DNA of 64,000 nt from an uncultured Christensenella sp. (GCA_949296965.1 CASFQL010000018.1:81413-145412), one strand, 5' to 3'; positions 21,528 through 40,104 are shown, counted from the stretch's first letter. Numbers and translations: made by a program. The notes: generated by a model from the sequence alone, not told the origin.

Positions 21528-21629
21528 AAATTATGTGCTGTTGTAATTTTGTAAAAACAAAATAACAACTATTAGAATTTAACTTAGTTAAATTTTAATT
21601 CAAAAATTAACATTTTTGGCACAAAATTT
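21528..21629 (-). repeat. four-way-junction intergenic element, copy E1
   Basis: P1 AAATTATGTGC (21528-38) / GCACAAAATTT (21619-29), with one A-A mismatch. It encloses three hairpins: GTTGTAATTTTGT-aaaa-ACAAAATAACAAC, ATTAGAATTTAAC-tta-GTTAAATTTTAAT and CAAAAAT-taac-ATTTTTG. Strand is assigned by the conserved TGTGC|CAAAA junction. Confidence 0.75.
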
Positions 21630-21694
21630 GAATTTGTCGTCGTTAAGTAAAAATAAAAATAAATTTTCTCTTTTACCTTAACTTCCTAGAATAT

Positions 21695-21796
21695 AAATTA
21701 TGTGCTGTTGTAATTTTGTAAAAACAAAATAACAATTATTAAAATTTAACTTAGTTAAATTTTAATTCAAAAATTAACATTTTTGGCACAAAATTT
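21695..21796 (-). repeat. four-way-junction intergenic element, copy E2
   Basis: Second copy, 167 bp downstream of E1. The 117-bp blocks 21526-21642 and 21693-21809 differ at 2 positions. Confidence 0.75.
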
Positions 21797-21930
21797 GAAT
21801 TTGTCGTCGCCATACAAGAATAAAATTAAACTTTTTTTCTTGCTATGGCTTCCTAAAATATAAAAAAAGGAAAATACTAAAAATAACCCATAAGGTTAAA
21901 AAGAGTAATTCCTTTTTTTATGATTGCTTA

Positions 21931-23103
21931 TTAATCTTTTTTCTTATCTTTTTCTTTTTTATATTGTTTATATAAGATAGCACCTCTAAGGACTAAAAGA
22001 ACACAAGTAATAATAAAGCCATAATAAAAATATTCATAATAATCAATTACGGGACTATTTACATAATATTGAGAAATTTCCCCATCTTTGGAAGTTAAAA
22101 CAATGTTTCCCAAATCTTTTGTCATCATAATTTGACAACCTGTTTCTTCCAATCTATCAAGTGCCTCTTGTGTTGGGTGTCCGTAATCATTTACTGCACC
22201 AACACTAATGACTGCTATTTCAGGTTTTACAGCATCTAAAAATTCAGCACTTGTTGATGTTTTACTGCCATGATGACCAACTTTTAAAACATTACAATCA
22301 AAAATTAATTTTCGAACTTCTTTTGGATATGCTTGCAAAAATGTTTCTTCATCTTCAATTCCAGCATCTCCAACAAACAGGTATTTCATATTTTGAATAT
22401 TAACCATCATTATTGGAGAGTATGAGTTCCAATCGCTAGAACCTAAATTTTCTTCAAGTGGTGTATAGAAATTAACTTCATAAGCATATTCTTCGTTAAC
22501 AATTTTATCTCCCTTTAAGGAATAATTCATTTCAATTAAGCAATCTTCGTTATATATTGCTTCCATTGTTTGACGCCAAATTTTTGTGTCCTTTACAACA
22601 AAATCTTGCGTCATCAAATTGTTTTCTTCTTCATATGTAGAATAAACACAAGGAATATAAACATTTAAAACATCATAATTTTCAAAAATATCAGGTGCAT
22701 TTCCAATGTGATCGCTATCTGTATGAGTTAAAACAAGGTAATCAATAGTAGTAATATTTAGATTGTCAATGTAATTTATAAGAGTTGAGGCAATTTCATC
22801 ATCATTTTCACCCGTGTCAATAAGCATAACTTTATCATCTGGGAACTCAATTAATGCACTATCTCCCTGCCCAACATCAATAAAATGAACAGCATAATCT
22901 CCCGTAATAGAAGTATCAAATCTATATCCCTTCTCATTAAGCGGATTATCAGTGTTCTTTACAACTATAAAACCTACTAAGAAAAACACCCAAACACAAC
23001 AAATTATGACAAAGTTTTTTAATTTATTCTTTTTACTCATTTTGTTATATTTTTTTGTATCACTAGCAACATATTTAATCCAATCAGTTTTCTTTTTACT
23101 CAT
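21931..23103 (-). CDS. membrane-anchored MBL-fold metallo-hydrolase (ComEC/Rec2 C-terminal lactamase-type domain)
   Basis: 390 aa. N- and C-terminal TM segments. HFIDVGQGDSALI, LVLTHTDSDHIGN, VGHHGSKTSTS and NDYGHP motifs. Confidence 0.8.
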   Translation of the reverse strand: MSKKKTDWIKYVASDTKKYNKMSKKNKLKNFVIICCVWVFFLVGFIVVKNTDNPLNEKGYRFDTSITGDYAVHFIDVGQGDSALIEFPDDKVMLIDTGENDDEIASTLINYIDNLNITTIDYLVLTHTDSDHIGNAPDIFENYDVLNVYIPCVYSTYEEENNLMTQDFVVKDTKIWRQTMEAIYNEDCLIEMNYSLKGDKIVNEEYAYEVNFYTPLEENLGSSDWNSYSPIMMVNIQNMKYLFVGDAGIEDEETFLQAYPKEVRKLIFDCNVLKVGHHGSKTSTSAEFLDAVKPEIAVISVGAVNDYGHPTQEALDRLEETGCQIMMTKDLGNIVLTSKDGEISQYYVNSPVIDYYEYFYYGFIITCVLLVLRGAILYKQYKKEKDKKKD

Positions 23104-23353
23104 ATTTTCTCCTTAGTATAATATAAATTTAATTAAAATAATTTACAATTTAATTAAAAAAACTTTAAATTTTTTTTAATTTAGATAAAATTATTATAAT
23201 AAAAACAATTTTTAAATTTATAAAAACTTTATTCGATTGACTTTTATCTTTAAGTTAAATAGATTTTGTGTTATAAGTTAAATTAATTTTTATATTTAAA
23301 TTAAATAACTTATAATAAAAAAATCTTTTCAACAAAATCTTAAAAAGTATATA

Positions 23354-24226
23354 CTATCTTATAATTAATGGTTTATTTTCAGTAGTTACAGCAAATTTTC
23401 TTTTTTGTGCTCTGCGTGGTTTTTTTGAAATAATTTCTAAAATTTTAGGTATGCAATCAATAGTTGCCATATAACCTTCTGCGAACATAGCATCTGCTTC
23501 ATCTATCTTGGTTGACTTATATTTTTTCATACTTGGCTTAATTACAAAGTCAGCATTGATATAACCTTTAACGGAATTGCTTTTTGTCATAATTCTTAAT
23601 GTAGCAGCAAGAACATCTAAGACTTTTAATGAGTCTGTTCCTTCTCCCCTTGTTGAATTTACATCTATTGCTATTACATAATCACAACCAAAATATCTAG
23701 GTACATCAGATGGAATATTATTTTGCAGTCCACCATCGCTTAAATGCATATCTTTATACTCAACAGGAACAAAGACTCCGGGAACGGCACAACTTCCCGC
23801 TACAATTTTAGGTAAATTACCTTTTGAAAATACTATCTCGTTTGAAGTTATTAAATCAACAGCAACAGCAGCAAAAGGAATTTTTAAATCGCAAATATCA
23901 ATGTCTCCCATTTCTTCTTTAACAATTTCCTGTATACCATCAGTTTTTGATGGCATAAAAAACTTACTTCTTTTTATATCTTTTACTTTCAAAGATTTTG
24001 CAACTTTCATAATCTCATCAGAAGTTTTACCATAAGCATACATTGCACCAACAAGGGATCCTACACTAGTGCCAGCAATGAAATCAAAACATATATTATT
24101 TTCTTCAAAAGCCTTAATTGCTCCAATATGTGCTATTCCTCTTGTCGCGCCACCACCCAATGCTAGTCCAACTTTAACCTTTTTATTCTTTGATGGAGTT
24201 TTATTCTTTGCTATAAAAAAATTCAT
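23354..24226 (-). CDS. patatin-like phospholipase
   Basis: 290 aa. Oxyanion GGGATRG, nucleophile elbow GTSVGS and catalytic DGG. Confidence 0.9.
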   Translation of the reverse strand: MNFFIAKNKTPSKNKKVKVGLALGGGATRGIAHIGAIKAFEENNICFDFIAGTSVGSLVGAMYAYGKTSDEIMKVAKSLKVKDIKRSKFFMPSKTDGIQEIVKEEMGDIDICDLKIPFAAVAVDLITSNEIVFSKGNLPKIVAGSCAVPGVFVPVEYKDMHLSDGGLQNNIPSDVPRYFGCDYVIAIDVNSTRGEGTDSLKVLDVLAATLRIMTKSNSVKGYINADFVIKPSMKKYKSTKIDEADAMFAEGYMATIDCIPKILEIISKKPRRAQKRKFAVTTENKPLIIR

Positions 24227-24347
24227 AACTTACTTTCTCCCATAAATTATAGTTCAAAATCTGCTTTATGGTTAACGACTTCTTCTACCTTATACCAATA
24301 ATCTAAAAAAATTAATTTTGTCTACTACAATTAAATTACTATAATAC

Positions 24348-24439
24348 GGACTTTGTGCCAAAAGTGAAACTTTTGTGTGAAATTTTACTAAAATTTCACA
24401 GTAAAAATTTTATTCTAAAATTTTTACCGCACAAAGTCC
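24348..24439 (+). repeat. four-way-junction intergenic element, copy A
   Basis: P1 GGACTTTGTGC (24348-58) / GCACAAAGTCC (24429-39). P2 CAAAAGT-gaa-ACTTTTG (24359-75). P3 TGTGAAATTTT-act-AAAATTTCACA (24376-24400). P4 GTAAAAATTTT-attct-AAAATTTTTAC (24401-27). Only one unpaired junction nucleotide (C24428). Confidence 0.8.
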
Positions 24440-24497
24440 CTTTCTCCCTGCCAACAAATCATCAACCCATAAACCTAATTAAATTATATAACACAAT

Positions 24498-24529
24498 AAA
24501 AAAAACACCAAACAAATTTTGTTTGGTGT
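24498..24529 (-). terminator. intrinsic terminator after the 486-aa coiled-coil gene
   Basis: Minus strand: ACACCAAAC-aaaattt-GTTTGGTGT followed by T7, 17 nt after the stop at 24546. Confidence 0.7.
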
Positions 24530-24545
24530 CTAATTGTTAAATTAA

Positions 24546-26006
24546 TTATTCATCATCGTTTGAAGAATTATCATTTTCACTTTTTGCTTTTTCTTCGGCA
24601 TCTAATCTAGCAATCTTTTCTTCAATCTCAGCGATATCAGATTTTAATTGAGATTGGCTCTTAACCAAGAACTGATTTGCTCTTTCAAGTATAGGATATC
24701 TATCTTTATTTTTTTGCATAACTTCTTCACAGTGTTGAACAGATAATCTAAGTCCTTCAAGTAAATCAAGTTCTTCTGAAAGTTTTTTAGCCTTTTCTTC
24801 GTCAATATCTACATAATTATTTACGCCATATAAAACAACTTTTTGTTTTGCGACAATGGCTTCTTTCCTTCTTAACTTTTTCTTATCCCCTTCAAGTGTA
24901 TTGTTAACCCTTCTAAGTGGAATAAATTCTTTTCTATTAGCGGAAAGTTCTTTTTCATTTTCTTTAAGTCTTTGTTTTAAAACTTCAAGTCTTGCTTCAA
25001 GTTCTTCCCTTGACTCGCTAGGAAGAGTAGCAACTTCTTGTTCGTTTGCCTTTTCTTCCAAATCTTTAATAGTTTGCTTACTATTTTCAATTTCTTGTTT
25101 TAATTCTTCAATTTGTCTTTGAAGTTCAGCCTCTTTTTGTTCAAAAGCAAGTCTTTCTTCTTCTAACTTAGAATTTTCTTGGCTAATATCGTCCTCATTA
25201 CTTTCTTCTTCTTGGACAGAGTCTTCAACTACATTTTCTTCAACTTCTTCTTCGTTAGAACTATCTTCATTAACAGGTTCTTCTTCAACTACTTCAATTT
25301 CTTTACCAGAATCTTCGTCGTCATCATTATCTAATTCTTCCTTAGTTTCATTAGCGACTTCATCAATGAAATCATTAACTCTTTTAAGTTCTTCTTCTCT
25401 TAATTGTCTTTCTTGTAAAACTCTTTCGCTAGCAGCCTTTTCAAGTTCTAATCTTTTATTTTTTTCTTCTTCAAAAAGTTGTTCAGCCTCAATTCTCTTT
25501 CTTCTTTCTTCCTCAAGTTGTTTGTAAGCATTTTCCTCGATTTCTCTTTTTTCTTCTTCTAATTTATTAAGAGCATCAAGGGCCTTTCTTCTTTCTTCAG
25601 CAATTCTTTCTTCTTGTTCATCAGATTGAGCAATGTTTTGATTGATATATGAACTCTTTTCAACATAAGCACTAGTAGGTTCTACATAACCTCTTGCTTG
25701 TTGTTCTTCAAGTCTAGCCTTTTCAGGGTCAAAACCCTCTTCCTCATCAAGTTCATCATCTTCCCTATCAAAAGTTCTTTCTTCCTGTGGTTCAGGCAAA
25801 ACTTCATTAGGTTTATTTAATAATTTAGGTCTTTTATAATTTTGATTTTCTTCTTCTGCAATCTTTTTTCCATGTCTTTTAAAGAAAATACCATTTGAGC
25901 CATCAATAATAGAGATAAATAGGTCAGACAAGAAAACGATAATAAAAGAAGCAACAGCAACAATACCAATAACACCTAAAACGCTTAAAAATGTATTCCA
26001 AATCAT
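24546..26006 (-). CDS. membrane-anchored E/K-rich coiled-coil protein, function unknown
   Basis: 486 aa. N-terminal TM (FLSVLGVIGIVAVASFIIVFL), then about 440 aa of heptad-like E/K/R/L-rich sequence and an acidic tail. Confidence 0.65.
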   Translation of the reverse strand: MIWNTFLSVLGVIGIVAVASFIIVFLSDLFISIIDGSNGIFFKRHGKKIAEEENQNYKRPKLLNKPNEVLPEPQEERTFDREDDELDEEEGFDPEKARLEEQQARGYVEPTSAYVEKSSYINQNIAQSDEQEERIAEERRKALDALNKLEEEKREIEENAYKQLEEERRKRIEAEQLFEEEKNKRLELEKAASERVLQERQLREEELKRVNDFIDEVANETKEELDNDDDEDSGKEIEVVEEEPVNEDSSNEEEVEENVVEDSVQEEESNEDDISQENSKLEEERLAFEQKEAELQRQIEELKQEIENSKQTIKDLEEKANEQEVATLPSESREELEARLEVLKQRLKENEKELSANRKEFIPLRRVNNTLEGDKKKLRRKEAIVAKQKVVLYGVNNYVDIDEEKAKKLSEELDLLEGLRLSVQHCEEVMQKNKDRYPILERANQFLVKSQSQLKSDIAEIEEKIARLDAEEKAKSENDNSSNDDE

Positions 26007-26122
26007 AATGTTAAACTCCTTTATTTAGTAACCCATTAATTTATTTACACTTGAATTTTACCACACCATAGTCCTAGTGTCAATATCAAAAATAAATTTG
26101 AGCAAAATAACCACAAAAAAAA

Positions 26123-26995
26123 TTACAATTCCCAGAACTTATCATCACTAAAATCTGGGGTATAATCTTTTGAAGCACTTTGAAAATCTTGTATATATCC
26201 ATTTGTAAAACCTAAATTTTTAATATGGGCAACAACTTTTTTATATTCAATAGGCTTTAAAAAGGTGTTTAATTCGTCAAATTCTTTTGCCTTATAAAAA
26301 GGAACATATTGACTCATAAGAGAAATAATTAAATTGTTTCCTAAACTATTTTTTATATTTTCAAATATTTTTATACTATCTTCGCATAAGCCCGGCAAAA
26401 CTAAATGTCTAACAATTATACCTTTTTTCATAACTCCATCAACTATTATATCATTTGGAATTAATTTTCTAGCCTTTTGTATGGCTTTAAGACAAACTTC
26501 GTAATAGTTTGGGGCTTTTGAGTATTTAGTTGAATAAAATTCTGAGTAATATTTACAGTCAAACAAAAAGATATCAACCACTTCACACAATTTTTCAATA
26601 TTTTCTTCTAATTCGTAACCACTACAATTCCAAACAATAGGAATTTTAAGTTTACATTTTTTTAAAACGCTAATTAATTCATTTGTATAATGAGTTGGCG
26701 TAACTAAATTCAAATTAGCCACTCCACTATTCTCAATTTTCTTAAAAATCTTTATTAAATCGTTTTCATTTAAATTACGCCCCTGCCCCAAATGAGAAAT
26801 TTGATAATTTTGGCAAAAGACACATTTTAAAGAGCAGTTAGAAAAGAAAACAGCTCCACTTCCCTTATCTTTTGGGCACAAAATAGGTTCTTCAAAAAAA
26901 TGTCGCATTACTTTTGCTACACGAAAAATATTTTCTTGCTTATTACAAAAACTTTTTTCCCTGCATCTTCTAGGACAATCTTTACAATTATTCAT
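26123..26995 (-). CDS. radical SAM protein, PflX-type (putative glycyl-radical activase-like)
   Basis: 290 aa. CSLKCVFCQN (CxxxCxxC) and an N-terminal Cys-rich segment CKDCPRRC. 8-nt overlap with the upstream DegV gene. Confidence 0.8.
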   Translation of the reverse strand: MNNCKDCPRRCREKSFCNKQENIFRVAKVMRHFFEEPILCPKDKGSGAVFFSNCSLKCVFCQNYQISHLGQGRNLNENDLIKIFKKIENSGVANLNLVTPTHYTNELISVLKKCKLKIPIVWNCSGYELEENIEKLCEVVDIFLFDCKYYSEFYSTKYSKAPNYYEVCLKAIQKARKLIPNDIIVDGVMKKGIIVRHLVLPGLCEDSIKIFENIKNSLGNNLIISLMSQYVPFYKAKEFDELNTFLKPIEYKKVVAHIKNLGFTNGYIQDFQSASKDYTPDFSDDKFWEL

Positions 26996-27881
26996 TAGGT
27001 CTAACCTCGTTGCTTACAAAAGCATAAGCAACAGCGCTAGGTCCAACATGGGCTCCAATTATAGGCCCCATAATTCTAATATTTACATCAATTCCATAAG
27101 TAGATTTTAATAATTCTTTAAGTTCATCTGCTCCATCTAAATTGTCAGTATGAACTATTTCAATATAGGGAAACTCTTTGTTAAGTGAAAAATTTGCATA
27201 TTCATTAACAATACTTTTTAAAGCCTTTTTAAAACCAATTTCTTTTCTTACAATTTTTAATTTTCCGTCTCTACCAAATTGTAAAATCGGTTTTACTTGA
27301 AACATTGAGCCAATATTTGCGGAAGTTTTACTAATTCTTCCCCCTCTTGCTAAAAATTTTAAATCATTAACTAAAACAAAATGTTGAGTTAAATGTTTTA
27401 TTTCGTTTAATTTATTGACAGTTTCACTTAAAGATAACCCTTTATCTCTCATATTACAACAAGCCCTTACAATAAACCCTTCACCGATTGTTGTCGAGTT
27501 AGCCTCTATTGCAACATAATTTATATCTGGGAAATCCTTTTTTACAATTTCAATAGCAGAGTTAGCATTATCAACAGTTGGACTTAGTCCATAACCTTGT
27601 GAAATATGTATAGCCGACTTTATGCCTTTATTCGCCATTTTTGTAAAAAGGTCAACATGTGCTTGCACACTCAAAATGGAAGTCTTTGCTATTGCACCTT
27701 CCCTAAGCCTTTTATAAAAATCAAAATATTGTTTCTGAGAAGTATAGTTATCAAGTTCAACCTCTAAATTATCTCCAACAGAAACATTATACTCTAATGG
27801 CTCAACAAAAATATTTAACTTTTGAATTTCATCGACAAACAAATCACATGTGCTATCAGTCGAAACTTCAAAATTCTTCAT
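26988..27881 (-). CDS. DegV family fatty-acid-binding protein
   Basis: 297 aa. STDSTCDL start, typical DegV length and GPIIGAHVGP near the C-terminus. Confidence 0.85.
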   Translation of the reverse strand: MKNFEVSTDSTCDLFVDEIQKLNIFVEPLEYNVSVGDNLEVELDNYTSQKQYFDFYKRLREGAIAKTSILSVQAHVDLFTKMANKGIKSAIHISQGYGLSPTVDNANSAIEIVKKDFPDINYVAIEANSTTIGEGFIVRACCNMRDKGLSLSETVNKLNEIKHLTQHFVLVNDLKFLARGGRISKTSANIGSMFQVKPILQFGRDGKLKIVRKEIGFKKALKSIVNEYANFSLNKEFPYIEIVHTDNLDGADELKELLKSTYGIDVNIRIMGPIIGAHVGPSAVAYAFVSNEVRPNE

Positions 27882-27941
27882 AAAACTTTCTCCTTAAATT
27901 TTAGGTTAATTAAGTTAATTATTATCCTTGTTAAAATAGTT

Positions 27942-28586
27942 CTAGTTCTCTTGTTTTTTATCTTCGGTATTTAATTTAGTATTACTTTCGTTTATATTTG
28001 AAATAATATTATTTTGCCTTTCTTCAAACTTCTTTGCCCTGTTGTAAGCAACTATTAATTTAGGTCTATTGTATCTTTGAACACAAATCGGCGGTATTTG
28101 TAAAAAAACATTTACAACTACAATAGGAAAACTAATACCCCAAAAATATTTACTAGGAAATATTATTAAAAGCAAAAATGCAAAAAATATTGGCAATAAG
28201 TGAATAATTTCAGCATAACAAGTTTCTGTTATAAAACCTAGTAAATATTGACTAGAATTTTTATTCTCAATTTTTGATTTGTCAAAACATTTAAACATTT
28301 TACCAAGTTCAGGTATCTTATCTTTCCAAACTCTTATTTTTAATTTTTCATAAAATTTTCTTTCATTCTTTCTTTCAGCAAAAAAACCTTTAAAAGGATT
28401 AATAAATTTTTTGTTTATTAGCCTAGCACCCAAAGCACAAGCCCCATCAATACAAAAAGAAATAAATATCCCTAAGAAAATGAGTCCAGCTATTTCAATA
28501 TTACCTATACCGTAATTTGCCCATAAACAATTTGTTATAGATAAAAGAATCCAAGTAAAACCTATTATGCTAAGATATAAAACCAT
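27942..28586 (-). CDS. membrane protein of the glycosyl-4,4'-diaponeurosporenoate acyltransferase (CrtO-like) family
   Basis: 214 aa. RVWKDKIPE, ETCYAEIIHL and PPICVQRYNRPKL parallel S. aureus CrtO (VRKWKHKI, ETKRAELIHW, PIIIVQRYNRPRL). The substrate here is unknown. Confidence 0.6.
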   Translation of the reverse strand: MVLYLSIIGFTWILLSITNCLWANYGIGNIEIAGLIFLGIFISFCIDGACALGARLINKKFINPFKGFFAERKNERKFYEKLKIRVWKDKIPELGKMFKCFDKSKIENKNSSQYLLGFITETCYAEIIHLLPIFFAFLLLIIFPSKYFWGISFPIVVVNVFLQIPPICVQRYNRPKLIVAYNRAKKFEERQNNIISNINESNTKLNTEDKKQEN

Positions 28587-28741
28587 TTAAAACTCCTAAA
28601 TATTTTTTCTTGCGGATAAAATTAAATAAAAAATTAATAAAATACCAATATATATAACTTACTGTAATAATTGAACATTAATGATTAAAATTTATAATAT
28701 CTATGCAATTATTTGTAGTAAGAAAACTATAATGTCTATTT

Positions 28742-28834
28742 GGGACTTTGTGTCAAAAGTTTCACTTTTGAGTGAAATTTTTAATAAAATTTCACAGTAA
28801 AAATTTTTTCAAAATTTTTACTAAACAAAGTCCC
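28742..28834 (+). repeat. four-way-junction intergenic element, copy B
   Basis: P1 GGGACTTTGT (28742-51) / ACAAAGTCCC (28825-34). P2 CAAAAGT-ttc-ACTTTTG. P3 GTGAAATTTT-taat-AAAATTTCAC. P4 GTAAAAATTTT-ttc-AAAATTTTTAC. Confidence 0.8.
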
Positions 28835-28920
28835 CATCTTATACCAAAAATAATTTTAGTCAATATAAGATATATATTAATAATATAGTAAAAACAATAA
28901 AAATTCAAGCAAATTTTGAC

Positions 28921-28952
28921 AAAAAAAGATATGCTAGTAACATATCTTTTTT
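28921..28952 (-). terminator. symmetric (potentially bidirectional) terminator after the NfeD-SPFH operon
   Basis: AAAGATATG-ctagtaa-CATATCTTT flanked by an A-run and a T-run, about 130 nt after the stop at 29082. Confidence 0.6.
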
Positions 28953-29081
28953 AACAATAATATAAAAGTCTAAAAAATAATATTATATATAATTTAAAAA
29001 ACATTTTTTCAAGCACTTTAATAGTAAATGATAACCTAATGATATACATATAAGATATTAATCTTTAAGTTTAAGATTTAC

Positions 29082-30020: not shown

Positions 30021-30181
30021 TTTTTGCTCCTTTTCTACTTTGTGATATTCGTTTTTTGTTTGTTTAAATACTTTTAACTATTTAAATTTCCATAAATAAT
30101 ATTTTATTAAAATATTTTAAAAACTTTAATAATTAACTTAAAAAAAATAATGTTCTTAAAAATTTTTCTACTAAATAAAAA

Positions 30182-30628: not shown

Positions 30629-31464
30629 AAAAAATAATCCCTCCTAAACAAAATTTATTATATCAATAAAATAGATATAATCAAAATAAAATATAAAAAT
30701 TAATTTCTTATTTTAAACATATCTAATTTAAATTTATTATTAATTCATACAAAACACAATTAAATTTTATTCCTACCTTTAATTTGTTATTTTATGAAAT
30801 AATAAGTTTTTTGTATATTTTAAAAAATTGAATAGAAAACAAAAAAATTAATTTCTTTATTTTATCGTAAAATTTGGGGGTTAAATATACTTTTATTAGC
30901 AAAAAATAATTTACAAAATATTAAGTTCATATTGCGAGAAATAGTTAAATTTAAAAGTTTATACAGAGACGCTCTTTTCTATTATTTTTGCAATGAAGAT
31001 TGTAAAAGTATAAATAGAGAAAAAGACTTTAACATATGATTTAAATTGTTATCATATAAAAGAATATGAAGAATTCTATTAAAAAAAGATTTGTAGAAAA
31101 TGACATTTTTTATAGCAACAACCAGAATTTTAGTCTATTATAATTAATATGTTATCCTAAAATATATCAAATAATGAAAAATCTCAATTCATGTAAAAAA
31201 ACATGCAATCATCTTAATGATTTTTATTCAAAATGTAAATTCAAACAATTATACCTAAAAAAATATATTTTTAAATTGATAATAGTTATGAATATTACAT
31301 AAAAATTTAAAAAAAATATATCAAATGAACATTTTATAAAAAATATGACTATGTAATATTAAGTTGGGATATTGCTATAAAGTATTCTAAAAAAATCAAG
31401 TGATTTAAAACAATTAATAAATCTTATCAAACAAATTAAAATTAAATAAGACCCTTTATCCTGT

Positions 31465-31505
31465 TTAATAAAAATATAACCTAGACTCATAAAATAGTTT
31501 AGGTT
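31465..31505 (-). terminator. probable terminator after ssrA
   Basis: Minus strand: AACCTAAACT-attttatg-AGTCTAGGTT (one A-C mismatch), then a U-rich ATATTTTTATT, starting 7 nt after the tmRNA CCA end. Confidence 0.45.
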
Positions 31506-31511
31506 GATTTA

Positions 31512-31866: not shown

Positions 31867-32297
31867 GCAAGCCTTGATTGTTCTCTTTTAATATCTCTTT
31901 CCTTAATGTCTTCTTTTTTATTGTAGTTTTTCTTCCCTCTGCATATAGCAATTTCAAGTTTAAGTAAATCGCCTTTAAAATATGCTTTAATTGGAATAAT
32001 TGTTAACCCTTTTTGTTCAACCTTTTGTTTTATTTTTAATATTTCGTTTTTATTTAAAAGCAATGTTCTATCTCTATCTGCCTTTAAAGAAAACCCATTC
32101 ATATTTTGATAAGGTTTAACAAAACAATTTTTTAAGGTTACCTTATTCCCAGAAACTAAGATAAAAGCCTCATTTAAAGTCATACCGTTTTGCCTTATTG
32201 ACTTTATTTCAGCCCCTGACAAAACAATTCCTGCCTCAAATGTTTCTAAAATAAAATAATTAAAATTAGCAAATTTATTTGTAGCAACGACTTTCAC
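31857..32297 (-). CDS. smpB: SsrA-binding protein SmpB
   Basis: 146 aa. NKFANFNYFILETFEAGIVLSGAEIKSIR, typical SmpB. The last 10 nt overlap the tmRNA 5' end. Confidence 0.95.
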   Translation of the reverse strand: MKVVATNKFANFNYFILETFEAGIVLSGAEIKSIRQNGMTLNEAFILVSGNKVTLKNCFVKPYQNMNGFSLKADRDRTLLLNKNEILKIKQKVEQKGLTIIPIKAYFKGDLLKLEIAICRGKKNYNKKEDIKERDIKREQSRLAGV

Positions 32298-32391
32298 TTA
32301 TTTTCTCCTATAACATTATATCATATACTCCAATAATTGCAAATAGTTAATTTTGACAAAATTTATTTAAAAACGCAAAATTATATAATAC

Positions 32392-32505
32392 GGAACTTTG
32401 TGCAGTAAAAATTTTATTAATTTAAATTTAATAAAATTTTTACCACGCGATTTTAAATTCCATTTAAAACCGCGTCCAAAAGTTTAACTTTTGGCACAAA
32501 GTTCC
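32392..32505 (-). repeat. four-way-junction intergenic element, copy C (inverted relative to A/B/D)
   Basis: P1 GGAACTTTGTGC (32392-403) / GCACAAAGTTCC (32494-505). Hairpins on the plus strand: a 16-bp GTAAAAATTTTATTAA... stem (32405-43); ACGCGATTTTAAAT-tcc-ATTTAAAACCGCGT (32445-75, one A/C mismatch that becomes G-U on the minus strand); CAAAAGT-tta-ACTTTTG (32477-93). Confidence 0.8.
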
Positions 32506-32587
32506 TTTTTTTTACTAACTCAAATTTTACAACTACAAAATAATTTTAATACCTACAACTATTTTTATTTTTTAATAGGTAACTAAA

Positions 32588-34708
32588 CTATTTTCTTCCC
32601 TTTGATTTAACCTTTCTAACTACTTCAAAATTAAGTTTTCTCTCTTTTTTATCACAATCTACAAGCAAGACTTCAACCTTTTCCCCAATTTTATAAAAAT
32701 TATTATGAGAAACCAAACTTAAACTTTCTTCATCAAAGTTATAGAAATCATCAGTCAAACTAGCAACACTAACTTGTCCTTCACAAGTGTTGTCAAGTTC
32801 CACATAAAATCCACGAGCATTGACACCACTAATGATACCTATAAATTTATTACCAATAAACTGCTCCATATACTCACACTTTTTGTAATCAGTAATTGCT
32901 CTTTCAACATCTTCTGCTAGTTTTTCTTGTATACTAGATTTTTGACTAGACTTAACAACAAACTCGCTTAAATTTTGAGAATTTAGATAAGAAGAATTAT
33001 TTTTTAAATATTCTTTAATAATTCTATGAATTGTTAAATCTGGGTATCTTCTAATAGGCGAAGTAAAATGACAATAATATTTTAGAGCCATACCAAAATG
33101 TCCCAAGCATTTTTCAAAATATTTTGCTTTTTTTAAACTTCTTAACATAACCATATTAACAACACTTTCAATATCTTTACCTTTAATAGAATTTAAAATT
33201 TGTTGTAAATCTTTTGGCTCAACATCTTTACTTTTCAAATCAAAACTAATTCCAAGAGTGTTTATAAAATTATAAAAAGACTTCATTTTATCCATATCAG
33301 GCTTTTCGTGGACACGATAAACAAAAGGAATTCCTTTTTCATCGAAGGTCTTAGCAACAACTTCATTAGCCATAACCATAAAAGTTTCTATAATTTTTGT
33401 AGATTTTGTTGCAACTCTTTTCTCAACAGAAATAGGCATATTATTGTCGTCTACAATAACAACTCCTTCTGGTAAATCGAAATCTAATGCTCCATAACTT
33501 TCTCTTCTTTTGTTTAAAATGAGAGAAAGTTCATACATATCAAGCAGAACATCTTTGATTTCTTTTAATCTTTCACAAGTCTTTAAATCCCCATTAATCA
33601 AATCTAAAACTTCATCATAATTAAGTCTATATTTTGACCTAATAACACTTTCAAAAATTTGGCTATCTAAAATGTCCCCATCTTTACTAATTTTGATTTC
33701 AACAGAAAGAGCAAGTCTATCAACATTTGGGTTAAGAGAACAAATACCATTTGAAAGTTGTTTTGGTAACATAGGAATAACTTGATTAAGAAAATAAATA
33801 CTCGTCCCCCTATTAAATGCTTCCTCATCAAGTGGACTATTTACTTTAACATACTCGCCAACATCTGCAATATGAACACCAAGCAAAAAGGAGCCGTCAC
33901 TTAATTTTTCAAGGCTAACGGCATCGTCCAAATCTTTTGCATCTTTACCATCAATGGTAAAAAGCATTTGACTAGTTAAATCTCGCCTATTTTTAAATTC
34001 ATTTTTATTAATTTCTTGTTTTATAGAATTTGCACAACGCAAAACTTCATCACTAAAAACATCTCTAACCTTATTAAGTCTTAAAAGCCACTTAATATCG
34101 TTACCTTTTTTAGAAAGCGGACCAATAACTTCAACAACTCTGCCTATTGCATTGCCAGATTTATAACTTATGATATCAACTACTACTTTATCGTTATCAA
34201 CAGCCCCCAAATCTTCCCCAGCAGGAATTCTAATTTCCAAATTTTTCTTATCTAGTAAAACATAACCATAATCTTTTATTTTTCTATAAGTTCCAACAAG
34301 TCCATCATTTTCCCTTGATAAAATCTTTAAAATCTTACCTTCTCTTTTTTTGCCCGCATATCCACCACTTATAATTTTTACAAGAACAATATCCCCATCA
34401 AAAGCCCCTTGTAAGTTCTTCTTTGAAACATAAATATCTCCATTAGAATTTAAAACAAACCCAAAATTATTTGAGTTAATACTTAGTTTACCCTTTTCAA
34501 AGCCAAGAAAAGAAATTGTAGCGAACTTATTTTTGCTATATTCATAAATCTCGCCATCATTTACAAGTTCTTTTAACTCATCAAAAACTTTACTAGTATC
34601 TTCCCTTAAATTTGTTGCAACAATATTAGCAAGTTTACTAAGTCCCTTGTGATTAAATCTTTTTTCATTTAATAGATTTAAAATTTTTTCTTTTAAAACT
34701 GTATTCAT
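32588..34708 (-). CDS. rnr: ribonuclease R
   Basis: 706 aa. RNB domain motifs (DGKDAKDLDDAV, HFGMALKYYCHFTSPIRRYPD) and a C-terminal S1 domain. Confidence 0.95.
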   Translation of the reverse strand: MNTVLKEKILNLLNEKRFNHKGLSKLANIVATNLREDTSKVFDELKELVNDGEIYEYSKNKFATISFLGFEKGKLSINSNNFGFVLNSNGDIYVSKKNLQGAFDGDIVLVKIISGGYAGKKREGKILKILSRENDGLVGTYRKIKDYGYVLLDKKNLEIRIPAGEDLGAVDNDKVVVDIISYKSGNAIGRVVEVIGPLSKKGNDIKWLLRLNKVRDVFSDEVLRCANSIKQEINKNEFKNRRDLTSQMLFTIDGKDAKDLDDAVSLEKLSDGSFLLGVHIADVGEYVKVNSPLDEEAFNRGTSIYFLNQVIPMLPKQLSNGICSLNPNVDRLALSVEIKISKDGDILDSQIFESVIRSKYRLNYDEVLDLINGDLKTCERLKEIKDVLLDMYELSLILNKRRESYGALDFDLPEGVVIVDDNNMPISVEKRVATKSTKIIETFMVMANEVVAKTFDEKGIPFVYRVHEKPDMDKMKSFYNFINTLGISFDLKSKDVEPKDLQQILNSIKGKDIESVVNMVMLRSLKKAKYFEKCLGHFGMALKYYCHFTSPIRRYPDLTIHRIIKEYLKNNSSYLNSQNLSEFVVKSSQKSSIQEKLAEDVERAITDYKKCEYMEQFIGNKFIGIISGVNARGFYVELDNTCEGQVSVASLTDDFYNFDEESLSLVSHNNFYKIGEKVEVLLVDCDKKERKLNFEVVRKVKSKGRK

Positions 34709-34770
34709 AATAATATTTTACTAATAAGTTTAATGCGTGTCAAATTTATAGTGAAATGAAAATAAAATTA

Positions 34771-34807
34771 AATAAAAATCTCTCTTACTTGTGTGTAAAA
34801 GAGATTT
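34771..34807 (-). terminator. intrinsic terminator after secG
   Basis: Minus strand: AAATCTCT-tttacacacaagta-AGAGATTT followed by TTATTTAATTTTATTTT, about 20 nt after the stop. Confidence 0.5.
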
Positions 34808-34826
34808 AAAACATTACTAAATTATA

Positions 34827-35153
34827 TTAAGACCAAAGCGAACCGCCATAACCATACTTAGTAGAAATTAAGAACACAATAGTTAATACTGCAATAATAA
34901 TTGAAAATACAATCGTTGCTCTTTTTAATCTAGCAGCCCTATTTAGCCCTTTGTTTTTTGAATAATAAGTATCTTTAATACCTGTAATAACATTTGTAGT
35001 ATCACTACTTTCAGTTTCTTGCATCATAACAATTATAATTAGTGCTATTGCCGAAACTAAAATTAAACACAATAAAACAAATTTAAATATTGGAAAGAAA
35101 TCTGCACGCCAATTAGAAACAAGTTCGCTATCAGCCCCTAAAAGATAAAACAT
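34827..35153 (-). CDS. secG: preprotein translocase subunit SecG (probable)
   Basis: Two TM helices flank a polar loop, ...ALIIIVMMQETESS..., resembling B. subtilis SecG (IALIIVVLLQSSKS). Conserved position upstream of rnr-smpB-ssrA. 108 aa is long; a later start is possible. Confidence 0.65.
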   Translation of the reverse strand: MFYLLGADSELVSNWRADFFPIFKFVLLCLILVSAIALIIIVMMQETESSDTTNVITGIKDTYYSKNKGLNRAARLKRATIVFSIIIAVLTIVFLISTKYGYGGSLWS

Positions 35154-35217
35154 AAAATAAACTCCTTAAATAAACTAGTTGAATTTTAACACAATAAATA
35201 ATTAAAATCAACCAAAC

Positions 35218-35421
35218 CTAGTAAAAAATTAAAAAAGTAAAGAAAAACATTGTCGTTAAAACAATATACTTGACACTTTTTGCAGTATTTTTACCATCAT
35301 CATTAAGCATTTTTCTCATATAAATTATAGTAAAAATCACACAAAAAGTAATAACGGTTGACCGAAAATCATAAAAAAAATTATTCCTTAAAAAATTTAA
35401 TATCGTATTAACCGCTTCCAT
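35218..35421 (-). CDS. small 2-TM membrane protein, hypothetical
   Basis: 67 aa. AGGAG 5 nt upstream of the ATG. Two hydrophobic helices. No family recognised. Confidence 0.45.
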   Translation of the reverse strand: MEAVNTILNFLRNNFFYDFRSTVITFCVIFTIIYMRKMLNDDGKNTAKSVKYIVLTTMFFFTFLIFY

Positions 35422-35673
35422 TCTTACTCCTATGCATCTATTATAGTGTAATTATAATAAAATTACAAGAGCAATCTTTAAAAAAAATGAAATATATTAA
35501 TAAGATACAAAATTTTATTTCAAACAAAAAATATTTAGATATACCATATAAATTATGTTTAAATACATATTAAATTAGTTTCCGCTACTTTCTTTTAGTC
35601 CATAAACCAAAAAATAAAGTAAAAAATATAAAATTAAGAACTTATAGTAAATTATGAATTTTAAATTTAAGAA

Positions 35674-36450
35674 TTATTCTTTTTTTCTAGTTTTACAAGG
35701 GCAAAAAGCCTTGCAAATTTTAGCAAACTTTTCAGGTATTAAACTAGCACCGCCGACTAAAACTCCATCGACATTTTTAATTTTAGCAATTTCCTTACAA
35801 TTAACTTCGTTAACGCTACCACCATAAACAATAGTAACTTCGCTAGCAATTTTTTCGTCATACAAATCAGTCAATTTTTTTCTAATAAAGTCAATAGATT
35901 GACTAATTTCTTTTTCAGTTGCAACCACTCCTGTTCCAATAGCCCAAACAGGTTCATAGGCAATAACAATGTGATTAAGCTCATTAGCATAAATTGAATT
36001 TAACCCTTTTGTTAACTGACTAGACAAAACTTGTTCGGTCAAATTATTTTTCTTGTCAAACAAAGTTTCCCCTAAACAGAAGATACAAATAAGTCCGCTT
36101 TTTAATGCTTTAAGTATTTTTTTATTTACTAAAACATCATCTTCTTTAAACTGATTTCTTCTCTCGCTATGACCTATCAAAACTGCTTTTGCACCGACAT
36201 TTGAAACCATTTCAGCATTAATCTCCCCCGTAAACGAGCCATAAGCATTTTCATTAATATTTTGACCAGCGATTATAAAGTTAGTGTCACTTGCCTTATT
36301 GACCGCAGAATAAATAGAAACACTTGGGACCGCAATAACAACCTGACAATCACATTTATCGGTAAGTGAAGAAAGTTTATCTAAATAATCACAAACCTCA
36401 TCATTAGTTTTATTCATTTTAAAATTGGCCATAACATATTTTTTTGGCAT
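35674..36450 (-). CDS. tpiA: triose-phosphate isomerase
   Basis: 258 aa. NFKMN, LIGHSERR, AYEPVWAIGTG and YGGSV motifs. Confidence 0.95.
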   Translation of the reverse strand: MPKKYVMANFKMNKTNDEVCDYLDKLSSLTDKCDCQVVIAVPSVSIYSAVNKASDTNFIIAGQNINENAYGSFTGEINAEMVSNVGAKAVLIGHSERRNQFKEDDVLVNKKILKALKSGLICIFCLGETLFDKKNNLTEQVLSSQLTKGLNSIYANELNHIVIAYEPVWAIGTGVVATEKEISQSIDFIRKKLTDLYDEKIASEVTIVYGGSVNEVNCKEIAKIKNVDGVLVGGASLIPEKFAKICKAFCPCKTRKKE

Positions 36451-36463
36451 AGAAAAATCTCCT

Positions 36464-37978
36464 TTATTTTATTAAATTTTGTCCCGTCATCTCAAATGGC
36501 TTATCAATATTCATCATACTTAAAATAGTAGGTGCAATATCGGCAAGGGTTCCATCTTCTCTAAGCGTCTTTTTCCCCACTCCAAAAATTATTAAAGGAA
36601 CAAGAGAAGTCGTGTGAGCAGTATTTGGAGTTCCATCTTCATATCTCATAACATCCGCATTACCATGGTCCGCGGTAACAATTCCCTGTCCATTCCTTTT
36701 TAGCATCTCATCTACAACAATTTTGACACACTCGTCAACTACTTGAACGGCCTTTATTGTTGCTTGTAAATCCCCAGAATGTCCCACCATATCGCAATTA
36801 GCAAAATTTATAGCAATAAAATCATAATTATCCATAACTTCAAGGGCTTTTCTAGTAATTTCTCTTGCTCCCATTTGTGGACAAGAAGCATAACTAGACA
36901 TTTTTTCAGAGTTAATTAAAATTCTATCTTCATTTTTAAAAGTATCTTGCTTGCCTGAGTTAAAGAAAAATGTTAAATGAGCATATTTTTCAGTTTCAGC
37001 AATTTTTACTTGTTTTACTCCGTTATTGCTTAAAACTTCTGACAAAATATTTTTTGGCTGTTCATTTTTATAAACAATGTGAACATTTCTAAAATTTTCA
37101 TCATATTCGGTCATAGTTACAAAATACAAATCTAAATTTTTTACAAAATCTAAATCATTCTTTTCCGCCATAACAAAGGCAAGTTGCCTTTCTCTATCTG
37201 CTCTAAAATTATAAGAAATTACAACATCTTTTTCTTCAATCAAACCAATAGGGCTACCATTACTTGTTATGGATATAGGCTCAATAAATTCATCGGTTTG
37301 ATTATTTTTGTAAGCAAAATCAACAGCATCATAGACATCATCAAATTTATTGCCAATTCCACTTGTCCAAAGTTCATAAGCCTTTTTATTTCTGTCAAAA
37401 TTTTTATCTCTATCAAGTGCATAAAATCTACCAACAATAGAAGCAATCTTCCCACAACCAACTAATTTAGTATAATCTTCGACTTGACTAAGGTATTTTT
37501 TGATACTCTTTGGAGGAGTATCTCGCCCATCTCCAATAAAGTGGATAAAAACATCATAAAATTTATTTTGTTTACACATTTCAAGCAAAGCAAATAGATG
37601 TTCAATATGAGAATGAATTCCGCCGTCTGTTGGTAAACCAATTAAATGAATTTTCTTTTTATTTTGTTTAGCATACTTAATTGCTTTCAATAGTTCTTCA
37701 TTCTTAAAAAAAGCCCCACTTTCAATGTCCATATTAATTCTTACTAAAATTTGATATGTAACTCTACCGCTACCAATAGTCATATGCCCCACTTCGCTAG
37801 TTCCCGCCTGTCCTTTTGGAAGACCTACAAACTGCTCACTTGCCCCAATTTGAGTATATGAAAATTCATTTTTAAATTCTTGCAAATTTTTAGTATTAAG
37901 AGGGGTAATTCCACTTCTACTAAAATCTTTTGGGATACCAAATCCGTCCATTATAATTAAACAAGTTTTTTTACTCAT
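36464..37978 (-). CDS. gpmI: 2,3-bisphosphoglycerate-independent phosphoglycerate mutase
   Basis: 504 aa. LIIMDGFG, SEVGHMTIGSGR, ITADHGNA-like TADHGNAD. Confidence 0.95.
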   Translation of the reverse strand: MSKKTCLIIMDGFGIPKDFSRSGITPLNTKNLQEFKNEFSYTQIGASEQFVGLPKGQAGTSEVGHMTIGSGRVTYQILVRINMDIESGAFFKNEELLKAIKYAKQNKKKIHLIGLPTDGGIHSHIEHLFALLEMCKQNKFYDVFIHFIGDGRDTPPKSIKKYLSQVEDYTKLVGCGKIASIVGRFYALDRDKNFDRNKKAYELWTSGIGNKFDDVYDAVDFAYKNNQTDEFIEPISITSNGSPIGLIEEKDVVISYNFRADRERQLAFVMAEKNDLDFVKNLDLYFVTMTEYDENFRNVHIVYKNEQPKNILSEVLSNNGVKQVKIAETEKYAHLTFFFNSGKQDTFKNEDRILINSEKMSSYASCPQMGAREITRKALEVMDNYDFIAINFANCDMVGHSGDLQATIKAVQVVDECVKIVVDEMLKRNGQGIVTADHGNADVMRYEDGTPNTAHTTSLVPLIIFGVGKKTLREDGTLADIAPTILSMMNIDKPFEMTGQNLIK

Positions 37979-37980
37979 AT

Positions 37981-39426
37981 TTACCTTGCCTTACTTTCCT
38001 TTTTAACAGCACTTTTAGTTTTATTATCAGCCTTAGTCTTTAATGTGCTAGAATTTTTCTTACTATCTCCCTCTTTTTTCTTAGAATCTTTATTGCTTTT
38101 ACTACTTACCTTTTTATCTATTTTCTTAACACTTGAAGCAAGTTTTTGTTTTGTATCAACCTTTTTTGTTAAAGAACTTTTTAAAGAAGAAGTTTTTTTA
38201 GAAGACTTAACTTTTTTAACAGTTTTTTCTTTAATAGGATCGCCTGCATTAGCAATAATTTCAATTCCTGGTAAAGTTTTACCTTCAAGGAGTGCTAAAC
38301 TTGCCCCGCCACCTGTTGATAAATGATCAACTTTTTTACCATAGCCAGACTTAACAACAGCAGAAGCGCTATCACCACCGCCAATAAAACTAAAACCTTT
38401 TGTCTTTGCAACATATTTTGCAATTTTATTTGTCCCACGAGCATAGATTGGATTTTCAAAAACTCCCATAGGGCCATTCCAAATAACAGTTCCTGCTCTC
38501 TTTATGTATTTTTTAAAAAGTTTAATTGTCTTAGGACCAATATCAAGCCCCATATAATTGTCGTCAATTTGATTTGACAAAAATCTCACAGGCTTTTCTT
38601 TACTATCAAAATCAGTATTACAAATATTGTCAATAGGAAGAACAATTTCTGCCTTTTTGTCTTTTGACATATCAATAAATTTCTTACAAAGTTCAATTTT
38701 TGAGTCATCTACGAGAGATTTTCCAACTTTTCCACCCTGAGATTTTATAAAAGTATAGGACATACCACCCCCGATTAAAATATAGTCCGCCTTATCAAGT
38801 AAGTTTTCAATAACAGGAATTTTATCGCTAATCTTAGCCCCACCTAAAACTGCTACAAGTGGACGATTTGGATTTGACAGAACTTGACCAATTATTTTAA
38901 GTTCCTTACTAATCAAAAAGCCAATTGCATTTGGTAAAAGTTTTGCGACCCCATAAGTTGAAGCGTGCTTTCTATGAGCAGTTCCAAAAGCGTCGTTAAC
39001 ATAATAATCAGCAAGACCAGCAAGTGCCTTACTAAATGTTGGACTATTTTCTTCTTCCCCGCTATCAAATCTTAAATTTTCTAATACGACAATTTCCCCG
39101 TCTTGCATTTGACTAATTTTTTCTTTTGCATCTTTACCAATCGTATCAAGTGCAAAAGTAACTTTATTTTTTACAAGCATAGACAACTTTTCTGCAACAG
39201 GTTTGAGAGAATACTTACTATCAACCTTGCCCTTTGGTCTTCCAAGATGAGAACAAATTATTACCTTTGCGCCGTTATCACATAGATAATTAATTGTAGC
39301 AAGACTTTCCATAATTCTGGTATTATCAGTGATTTCACCCGTTTCAAAGTTCATAGGAACATTAAAATCAAGCCTTAATAAGATTTTCTTACCCTTAACA
39401 TCTAAATCTTTAATAGTTCTTTTCAT
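37981..39426 (-). CDS. pgk: phosphoglycerate kinase with ~88-aa K/S/T-rich C-terminal tail
   Basis: Start taken at MKRTIKDLDVKGKKILLRLDFNVP (ATG 39426). The track's 36 extra N-terminal residues are probably not translated. Canonical end ...STGGGASLALLEGKTLPGIEII is followed by AGDPIKEKTVKKVKSSKK...KKESKAR. Confidence 0.93.
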   Translation of the reverse strand: MKRTIKDLDVKGKKILLRLDFNVPMNFETGEITDNTRIMESLATINYLCDNGAKVIICSHLGRPKGKVDSKYSLKPVAEKLSMLVKNKVTFALDTIGKDAKEKISQMQDGEIVVLENLRFDSGEEENSPTFSKALAGLADYYVNDAFGTAHRKHASTYGVAKLLPNAIGFLISKELKIIGQVLSNPNRPLVAVLGGAKISDKIPVIENLLDKADYILIGGGMSYTFIKSQGGKVGKSLVDDSKIELCKKFIDMSKDKKAEIVLPIDNICNTDFDSKEKPVRFLSNQIDDNYMGLDIGPKTIKLFKKYIKRAGTVIWNGPMGVFENPIYARGTNKIAKYVAKTKGFSFIGGGDSASAVVKSGYGKKVDHLSTGGGASLALLEGKTLPGIEIIANAGDPIKEKTVKKVKSSKKTSSLKSSLTKKVDTKQKLASSVKKIDKKVSSKSNKDSKKKEGDSKKNSSTLKTKADNKTKSAVKKESKAR

Positions 39427-39798
39427 AATCAACCTCTTAATCTTTTTATAAGAATATTTTAGCAATTTACACAATTTTTGTATATAAAAATTAACTACTT
39501 TTTTAAAATTTTTAAAAAAACAATTAATTTGCATTTATTTGTAGAAACAATAATTATTATGTTATAGAAAATAATTTCTTGTAAAATTATTAACTAAAAA
39601 AATGCAAGAATTTAGTCAAAAAAAATTGAAAAATAAAGATATTCATATGCACATATAAGCATAAAATTTTTCTAAAATTTTTAGCACTCATAAGATATGA
39701 TTTTTTTTAAAAAAATCAATATGAATTATTTGCAATTTTTTTTGTAATATAAGTTTTTATTGCTACAATAAAATAAAAACAAATATATGTAAAAAGAC

Positions 39799-39890
39799 AA
39801 ATTATGTGCCAAAAGTTTTACTTTTGTATGAAGTTTTGTTATTCAAAACTTCATTGTAAAAATTTGAAAAATTTTTACAGCACATAATTT
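39799..39890 (+). repeat. four-way-junction intergenic element, copy D
   Basis: P1 AAATTATGTGC (39799-809) / GCACATAATTT (39880-90), perfect. P2 CAAAAGT-ttt-ACTTTTG (39810-26). P3 ATGAAGTTTTG-ttatt-CAAAACTTCAT (39828-54). P4 GTAAAAATTT-gaa-AAATTTTTAC (39856-78). Confidence 0.8.
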
Positions 39891-40104
39891 TTTCTTAATT
39901 ATATTTTAACAATTAATAAGCACTTTTATTCACTATATTAATTATAAAAAAATACCTAAGTGTGTTTTATTATATTAAGGTATAAACTACAAAATTCTAC
40001 ATTTTTTTTAAAACTTAAAATCAAAATATCTTTACTTTTTACTAGTAATATAATTTTTTATTAAGCCTTTTTAAAAGAATTTTTAAAAAATATCAAGTAG
40101 AGTA

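Follow-up and report, generated by a model that had tools for sequence, protein, structure and literature searches.

A structured, probably mobile intergenic repeat with a four-way-junction fold in an uncultured lineage of low-GC Clostridia

What kind of element sets the same four-armed fold into one intergenic spacer after another of a housekeeping locus: an RNA gene, a regulatory module, a protein-binding site or a mobile repeat? The question arises from a 64,000-nucleotide (nt) stretch of DNA from an uncultured Christensenella sp. (GCA_949296965.1, CASFQL010000018.1:81413-145412; hereafter, the window). In it, a preliminary description had reported six copies of an element, each with a closing stem (P1) around three hairpins (P2, P3 and P4), at about one copy per 10 kb. 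[quoted passage not shown] The window is the reverse complement of part of a metagenome scaffold in the European Nucleotide Archive (ERZ16268208:scaffold_36, 176.7 kb), which we used for DNA beyond both window ends. Working from sequence throughout, we find that the four-armed repeat family is real and was previously uncatalogued. With moderate confidence, we read the elements as a non-coding, lineage-specific and probably mobile structured repeat of the REP, MITE and bcr1 kind, which has built up copies between the genes of a single lineage of uncultured low-GC Clostridia.

Fold, covariation and copies of the repeat

All six copies were recovered at the positions and with the sequences first reported, A, B and D on the plus strand and C, E1 and E2 inverted (Table 1). 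Each folds as a closing stem and three hairpins, whichever strand is taken and whether it is treated as RNA or as single-stranded DNA, with z scores against shuffled controls of -5.1 to -11.0 as RNA and about -11 to -12 as DNA; both strands fold equally well as DNA. We aligned 12 distinct sequences in a common register, comprising eight window or scaffold copies, one strain allele and three copies from other metagenome-assembled genomes (MAGs). In this register P1 has 11 base pairs (bp) and is stacked directly on a P2 of 7 bp, followed by a P3 of 9-14 bp and a P4 of 10-17 bp, and 416 of 432 helix cells hold Watson-Crick pairs. The P1 arms are complementary in every well-preserved copy, their 11 bp lying within the 4-30 bp used for MITE terminal inverted repeats (PMC10969869). 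The junction had been called gap-free, which holds in appearance for some copies because their linkers happen to pair; single-nucleotide linkers stand at P2/P3, P3/P4 and P4/P1 in every copy, and P1/P2 alone is flush.

The compensatory stem changes listed in the preliminary description are real in this alignment. After loops were trimmed, 97.5% of helix cells were paired, and both sides had changed at 19 of the 36 pairs. None of 500 column shuffles reached the observed covariation and no slid-register control came near it; the alignment was built from the fold, which favors the structure, and the margin over controls is very large. Loop sequences are not conserved, while the P1/P2 corner, TGTG(C/T) followed directly by (C/T)AAAA, and the P4/P1 corner are nearly invariant. 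P1 is followed by one to four unpaired C. The arms of P3 and P4 are identical at eight of ten positions, which suggests a hairpin duplication. We discarded two other readings: the conserved strings TTGGCAC and TGTGA have the wrong spacing (by eye) for a sigma-54 or CRP-like site, and the short frames that cross the elements have no constant length or phase and mirror the symmetry of the stems, which argues against a coding role.

Two covariance models were used, R1, built from four copies and run with filters off, and the broader R2. On the window, R1 returned all six earlier copies and a seventh, copy F, which had first been spotted through the junction motif; R2 returned the same seven and no others. 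These matches had E values of 1e-5 to 1e-20, with the next-best window match at ~21 bits (R1) or ~15 bits (R2), setting aside the same copies on the opposite strand. Copies G, H, I and J in the flanking DNA bring the number on this scaffold to 11 within 80.6 kb, or about one per 7 kb, denser than first estimated. Every copy is intergenic, four in sense and seven in antisense orientation to the genes. The elements measure 85-167 nt with a GC (guanine plus cytosine) fraction of 0.16-0.30, a size, AT-richness and location typical of MITEs (PMC10969869).

The copies come in two forms, a short A-type (~85-114 nt) that consists of the four-armed structure alone and a long E-type (~165 nt) with an extra 5' hairpin, P0. 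E1 and E2, previously delimited as 102-nt elements, are in fact two units of a 167-nt tandem repeat that includes this module. An E-type unit runs from TTTATATTnTAGGAAG through the P0 hairpin and GACGAC(A/C)AAT(T/C) to the four-way junction, its 5' module consisting of AGGAAG, a bulged-G hairpin and GACGACAAATTC, in that order. P0 has 6 bp, the bulged G and further pairs (12-19 bp in total), and its stem sequence varies between copies; the module is also present in copy F and in two copies from another MAG. P1 of this type carries a conserved T.T mismatch. The units end in CACATAATTTATA, so that TTTAT(A) stands on both sides. TTTAT is found at both ends of E1, E2 and the copies at loci L006 and L009, whereas copy F has it on the left only; among A-type copies it occurs on both sides only of copy I and the copy at locus L003, at variable distance. 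Since TTTAT(A) is the same in every E-type copy, it points to a fixed end or a preferred target rather than to a demonstrable duplication.

Distribution and the readings it separates

We examined syntenic RNase R regions from eight related lineages (62-78% identity, ~158 kb in total). R1 found no copy in any of them, and R2, likewise with filters off, found none in seven of the eight, the remaining locus (L162) being searched with R1 only. The corresponding spacers are shorter in the relatives: 19-124 nt versus 290 nt here between RNase R and smpB, 211 nt versus 1027 nt between lactamase_B and nrdD, and 110-156 nt versus 319 nt upstream of the patatin gene. The absence of the family and the shorter spacers together mark the copies as lineage-specific additions to a conserved gene order. 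An alignment to the closest relative, made for an empty site, gave no exact ends, the spacer being too diverged.

Beyond these loci, a genome-collection scan with the P1/P2 pattern gave 11 loci, three of them true, which places the family in two other MAGs, a Christensenella sp. with one A-type copy and a Clostridia bacterium with two E-type copies. The latter two lie on different contigs and are 100% identical over ~165 nt, with unrelated flanks. The same pattern matched at least 120 loci in a metagenome scan and 13 in a viral scan; by covariance model, no family member was present among the metagenomic loci listed or among the viral ones. A blastn search of A-type and E-type elements against plasmid (72,556 sequences) and phage collections gave no meaningful match, and among 166 loci searched the P1 sequence occurred only within elements.

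Strain contigs bear on whether the element could be an invertible, phase-variable switch, with the P1 arms as inverted repeats around a 70-90-nt interior that flips. Copies A and C do share the plus-strand flank TATAATAC next to P1 despite their opposite interiors, as a switch would predict, but this flank was not seen at the other copies. Orientation is constant at each locus (copy C in six independent strain contigs, copy B in three), no inversion polymorphism was seen among the strain contigs, and the interior is far shorter than those of known invertons. We therefore disfavor a switch, which seems extremely improbable. Two strains 0.3% apart carry two differences in the 203 nt of the two elements covered, compared with 0.65% in other intergenic DNA, and one of the two makes or breaks a P1 pair; no constraint on the elements is visible between strains.

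Covariation this strong, with stems of variable length, is also what a structured RNA would leave. The copies might be multicopy small RNAs of ~90-110 nt, each with its own promoter, that act in trans or bound to protein and for which the junction is the functional fold. A good TTGTCT-16-TATAAT lies 2 nt upstream of copy A, the strand that reads P1-P2-P3-P4 has G.T pairs in copies C and F and the copy at L006, and the unpaired C that follow P1 look like a defined 3' tail. Yet promoter-like hexamer pairs spaced to start at P1 are no commoner than at random intergenic positions on either strand, and a general promoter scan stays at the background level of this AT-rich DNA. A terminator scan called no copy, though it called true terminators nearby; U-tracts do not occur consistently, and the 3' flanks vary from copy to copy. 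Departures from Watson-Crick pairing on the P1-P2-P3-P4 strand comprise five G.T and four A.C, about equal numbers that favor neither strand. At Rfam 15 gathering thresholds, only tmRNA (transfer-messenger RNA) and tRNA-Leu pass in the window, so the repeat is not a catalogued Rfam family; as first stated, the copies are accounted for by no open reading frame (ORF), no canonical terminator and no catalogued RNA family. The unconserved loops, the decayed copies and the absence of the family from the syntenic loci of all eight related lineages likewise count against small RNAs, which we regard as possible but unlikely.

An RNA role could instead be exercised in cis, as a module in untranslated regions that blocks 3' exonucleases, terminates or insulates transcription, or supplies an outward promoter, as for REP, Correia, SPRITE and BOX repeats. 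All copies do lie between genes of a tightly co-oriented genome, their folds are very stable, and a C-to-T change in copies B and F makes an outward-reading TTGACA on the gene-sense strand; effects of this sort have been published for comparable repeats (PMC10969869, PMC3184786). Copy A, however, falls between a canonical terminator, that of the upstream gene, and the promoter region of the next gene, patatin, and is thus probably outside both mRNAs. Copy G lies between convergent genes, the orientation to genes is mixed, and the relatives have the same genes without the element. As its primary role, such a module appears improbable.

The nearly invariant P1/P2 and P4/P1 corners between variable loops, the strictly Watson-Crick and strand-symmetric pairing and the equal folding of both DNA strands could also suit a binding site with a host function. 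This would be double-stranded DNA or an extruded cruciform used in nucleoid organization or by a junction-binding protein, with each hairpin a palindromic protein site. The stems, however, vary freely as long as they stay paired, the opposite of what a sequence-specific duplex site should do; close relatives lack the family, and decay is seen in some copies. At 7-11 bp, AT-rich arms are moreover short for stable cruciform extrusion. We consider a host binding site very improbable.

The wobbles and mismatches of copy F and the lost fold of copy J indicate that individual copies are allowed to decay. Taken together with the strand, promoter, terminator and strain tests, this suggests that the structure is selected in propagating lineages and not in each resident copy, the signature of a selfish or mobile repeat that needs its folded form for copying. 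We accordingly favor a dispersed mobile repeat because of the lineage-specific insertions into syntenic spacers, the identical copies at unrelated loci, the tandem pair, the decayed copies beside perfect ones, the presence of both orientations and the lack of any G.U excess or promoter enrichment. Among the three options first offered, mobilization in trans is thus preferred, and the small-RNA and cruciform readings are kept at lower confidence.

A dispersed mobile repeat of this kind would spread via a folded single strand or an extruded cruciform, with the 11-bp P1 arms acting as terminal inverted repeats and the P1/P2 corner being read by an enzyme supplied in trans, for which a structure-specific transposase or a site-specific recombinase would be candidates. 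A mechanism like site-specific recombination has been proposed for TTTAT-flanked bcr repeats (PMC3184786, PMC6542083). Selection for foldability in the propagating lineages could then produce compensatory changes between subfamilies, and copies would drift and decay after insertion. Effects on neighboring genes, such as protection of RNA 3' ends, termination or outward promoters, would be secondary.

Several observations weigh against a mobile repeat. Neither a transposase nor a recombinase turned up in the window, the part of the genome that was searched, and target-site duplications, looked for beside P1 at the A-type copies A, B, C, D and G, whose exact ends are undefined, were not seen. 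There is no presence/absence polymorphism among the strain contigs examined, and three genomes only carry the family in the data reachable here. The conserved unpaired features (the bulged G of P0 and a 3' C-run with TTTTATA after it) have no explanation under this reading. Within one genome, the divergence between copies also greatly exceeds that of a typical recent MITE burst, yet their pairing is almost perfect, which would equally fit selection on each copy.

There is, in addition, a slight chance, somewhat below that given to small RNAs in general, that the four-way junction itself is the selected functional object. It might serve transposition or recombination as a Holliday-junction-like substrate, a structure-specific enzyme recognizing the single strand in its folded form instead of a plain hairpin or the end of a duplex. 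Or it might be a family of compact four-helix small RNAs of ~90 nt, expressed from many loci and ending in a C-rich 3' tail. Both versions are compatible with the strength of the covariation, with the P1/P2 corner, with linkers that are fixed at 1 nt and with a conserved run of unpaired C.

Individual copies and their surroundings

Table 1. Copies of the four-armed repeat and other features of the window (positions counted from the first nucleotide of the window)
Feature	Position	Strand	Description
Copy A	24348..24439	+	Reference anatomy; fold -37.3 kcal/mol, z -9.9; R1 96.1 bits, R2 82.9 bits
Copy A, P1	24348-24358 with 24429-24439	+	Closing stem
Copy A, P2	24359-24375	+	Hairpin
Copy A, P3	24377-24399	+	Hairpin
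Copy A, P4	24401-24427	+	Hairpin
Copy A, linkers	24376; 24400; 24428	+	T; A; C
Copy B	28742..28834	+	A-type; R1 and R2 matches
Copy C	32392..32505	-	Inverted; R1 and R2 matches
Copy D	39799..39890	+	E-like P1 (AAATTATGTGC) with A-type P2 and P4; R1 and R2 matches
E1 unit	21528..21694	-	Four-way junction 21528-21629; 5' module 21630-21694
E2 unit	21695..21861	-	Four-way junction 21695-21796; 5' module 21797-21861
Copy F	3564..3726	+	E-type unit; P0 module 3564-3631, four-way junction 3632-3726; R1 34.8 bits, R2 40.1 bits
Copies G, H, I, J	Same scaffold, outside window		Found in DNA fetched beyond the window ends
Terminator near copy A	24503-24531		Intrinsic terminator of the upstream gene
14-nt boxes	20938-20990		ACTACATATTGTGT and ACTATATATTGTGG
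Promoter-like sequence	21190-21217		Perfect TTGACA-16-TG-TATAAT
Tandem array	21283-21396		About six copies of an AT-rich 18-19-nt unit
tRNA-Leu(CAG)	21389-21475	+	Sole plus-strand gene in the window
tmRNA-nfeD interval	30629-31511		~880 nt without a called gene
Phosphoglycerate kinase ORF	37981-39534	-	Readable as 517 amino acids
dus-like stretch	40097-40189		93 nt; includes GCACAAAGT (40170-40189)
dus, 5' part	41633-41725		Matched by the dus-like stretch
ORF of 251 amino acids	44470-45225	-	Follows the ORF of 1493 amino acids
ORF of 1493 amino acids	45242-49723	-	No Pfam match

The window has a GC content of 29% and consists of housekeeping genes, including ruvABC, secDF, nrdD, smpB/tmRNA, RNase R, glycolysis genes, spoVT- and spoVB-like genes and ribosomal protein operons, with all protein genes on the minus strand. 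Among the matches listed, its RNase R protein falls in a clade of uncultured Clostridia, with 57-67% identity to many MAG proteins (a few named 'Clostridia bacterium'), a best single identity of 78% and 47% to a match named Christensenellaceae.

Within this setting the copies differ in detail. The innermost P1 pair of copy B is T-A where copy A has C-G. The adjacent position is mismatched (G.A) in this strain and pairs as G-C in strain contig L013, where 28824 is C rather than A. Copy C is flanked by the stop of RNase R and the promoter of smpB; its P3 contains one G.T pair and an ACGCG/CGCGT clamp, and its P4 has 16-17 bp. Copy F is partly decayed, with three G.T pairs, two A.C mismatches and a fold of -19.5 kcal/mol, and copy J, also decayed, has lost the junction fold. 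Copy G is perfect (-42.6 kcal/mol). Copy I has another P1 variant (GGGCTATGTGT/ACACATAGCCC) and another P3 variant, and an independent assembly contig stops 66 nt after it, as expected at a repeat. A 19-nt AT-rich tandem array resembling GAAAAAGATATATTAACT lies between copies I and J (L167, ~5900-5990, beyond window position 64000), in a 914-nt spacer upstream of the S10 ribosomal protein operon.

E1 is the first of the two tandem units and lies 53 nt from tRNA-Leu; after its junction follow the linker GACGACAAATTC, the P0 hairpin, AGGAAG and TTTATATT, and the P0 stem of E2 reads GCCATA-G-CAAGAA. The AT-rich tandem array reaches and slightly overlaps the 5' end of tRNA-Leu. From the length of the nrdD-lactamase_B spacer relative to its counterparts, tRNA-Leu, this array and E1/E2 are all lineage-specific additions. 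The two similar 14-nt boxes stand upstream of the anaerobic ribonucleotide reductase gene and resemble NrdR operator boxes, as which they may serve.

Near copy D, the dus-like stretch is 85% identical to the 5' part of dus, 1.5 kb away, and is a duplicated fragment of that gene; the string GCACAAAGT belongs to this duplicate and was rejected as part of the element. A 486-amino-acid ORF adjoins an element both here and at L009, but the two proteins are unrelated. The phosphoglycerate kinase ORF is called as 481 amino acids in the source record, compared with mostly 394-402 in relatives and 446 in L163; its N-terminal extension may not be real.

The interval between tmRNA and nfeD holds most of the intergenic strain differences, and a short strain contig (L017) has a DUF5301 gene after smpB instead. 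In the relative L163 (15629-18215), smpB/tmRNA is followed directly downstream by genes for a large serine recombinase and a rolling-circle Rep-like protein (REP_ORF2-G2P), an island of the type usual at tmRNA sites and one without the four-way-junction repeats. The ORF of 1493 amino acids encodes a large conserved protein of no assigned family, and the smaller ORF that follows it has no Pfam match either. Relatives keep the pair upstream of spoVT at similar sizes (1475-1488 and 244-246 amino acids).

Comparison with known repeat systems

If the repeat is mobile as we propose, it would be a well-defined and unusually regular addition to the structured, transposase-less repeats of Firmicutes such as bcr1 and BOX, in an uncultured gut-type Clostridia clade for which no such element had been described. 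The elements inflate intergenic spacers and break assemblies, and screens for structured RNAs will keep finding them, for which a masking or annotation model would be useful. Their clean anatomy, with four perfect helices, the conserved corner, two size classes and TTTAT ends in one of them, makes them well suited to studying the copying of repeats of this sort, a process that to our knowledge is unsettled even for bcr1. A new structural class would instead be at hand if the junction were to act as a functional RNA or, by its shape, as a substrate for recombination.

Small multicopy RNA-like motifs of unassigned function are known from Treponema denticola, where TD-1 and TD-2 are species-restricted (PMC1950547). 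TD-2 (RF03162, clan CL00124; 28-36 per genome) is similar in being multicopy, with several hairpins, covariation, modular stems and mixed orientation to genes (PMC1950547), and it gave the best permissive Rfam match, on copy D and over the whole model. This match scored 28.2 bits, far below the gathering cut-off of 48.7; the other six window copies had no match, the first TD-2 hairpin is unformed in the alignment and TD-2 has no closing stem. On the sub-threshold score and the unformed hairpin we rejected membership.

REPs are single GC-rich hairpins of 20-40 nt, with 8-9-bp stems, 4-5-nt loops and a terminal unpaired GTAG or CGTC (PMC3733652). Like REPs and their bacterial interspersed mosaic elements (BIMEs), the copies are intergenic, occur in both orientations without target duplication and combine compensatory hairpins with short unpaired tails into larger foldable units; after the E-type P0 comes GACGAC, whose opposite strand contains CGTC, as in CGTC-tagged REPs (PMC3733652). 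With four AT-rich helices of 7-17 bp in fixed order they nevertheless fall outside the REP definition. P0, at 12-19 bp, also differs in its bulge and larger loop, and no gene for a REP-associated tyrosine transposase (RAYT, a Y1 HUH transposase) was seen in the 64-kb window.

MITEs such as Correia/NEMIS, RUP, Chunjie and QMITE share with the present family a length below 500 bp, AT-richness, intergenic sites, terminal inverted repeats and stable folds, as well as a copy number that varies between related genomes and a mixture of full-length and decayed copies (PMC10969869). Unlike MITEs, the A-type copies have no target-site duplication and no related insertion sequence was identified for the family; the copies are much more divergent than after a recent burst, still paired, and form a multi-branch junction rather than one long hairpin. 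BOX of Streptococcus pneumoniae is likewise a modular Firmicutes repeat whose end modules pair around internal hairpins, with mosaic copies and clusters with other repeats (PMC3184786, PMC10969869), and the resemblance of P3 and P4 to duplicates of one hairpin adds to the likeness. BOX, however, has a variable number of boxB modules, whereas the hairpins here are always three, and there is no sequence relationship and no Rfam match.

[quoted passage not shown] Its stability is variable, with some copies destabilized; it has no transposase of its own, and its transcription has been shown (PMC3184786, PMC6542083). The present family is similarly an AT-rich, intergenic Firmicutes repeat whose distribution is not conserved between related genomes. 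It also has a branched fold, a closing stem around independent hairpins, that is kept by compensatory changes and destabilized in some copies, and its E-type unit approaches bcr1 in length (~165 nt) and carries TTTAT(A) on both sides. It differs in having three internal hairpins, and hence a four-way junction, where bcr1 has two, and in A-type copies without consistent TTTAT flanks. The comparison is with bcr1 as described rather than with its consensus, and the 72,556 plasmids that gave no meaningful blastn match include some that bear bcr repeats (PMC6542083).

Branched, covarying and mobile intergenic repeats are thus already known in bcr1, BOX and REP/BIME. The four-armed elements of this Clostridia lineage most likely work like bcr1, REP or MITE repeats, while standing outside the definition of any one of them.

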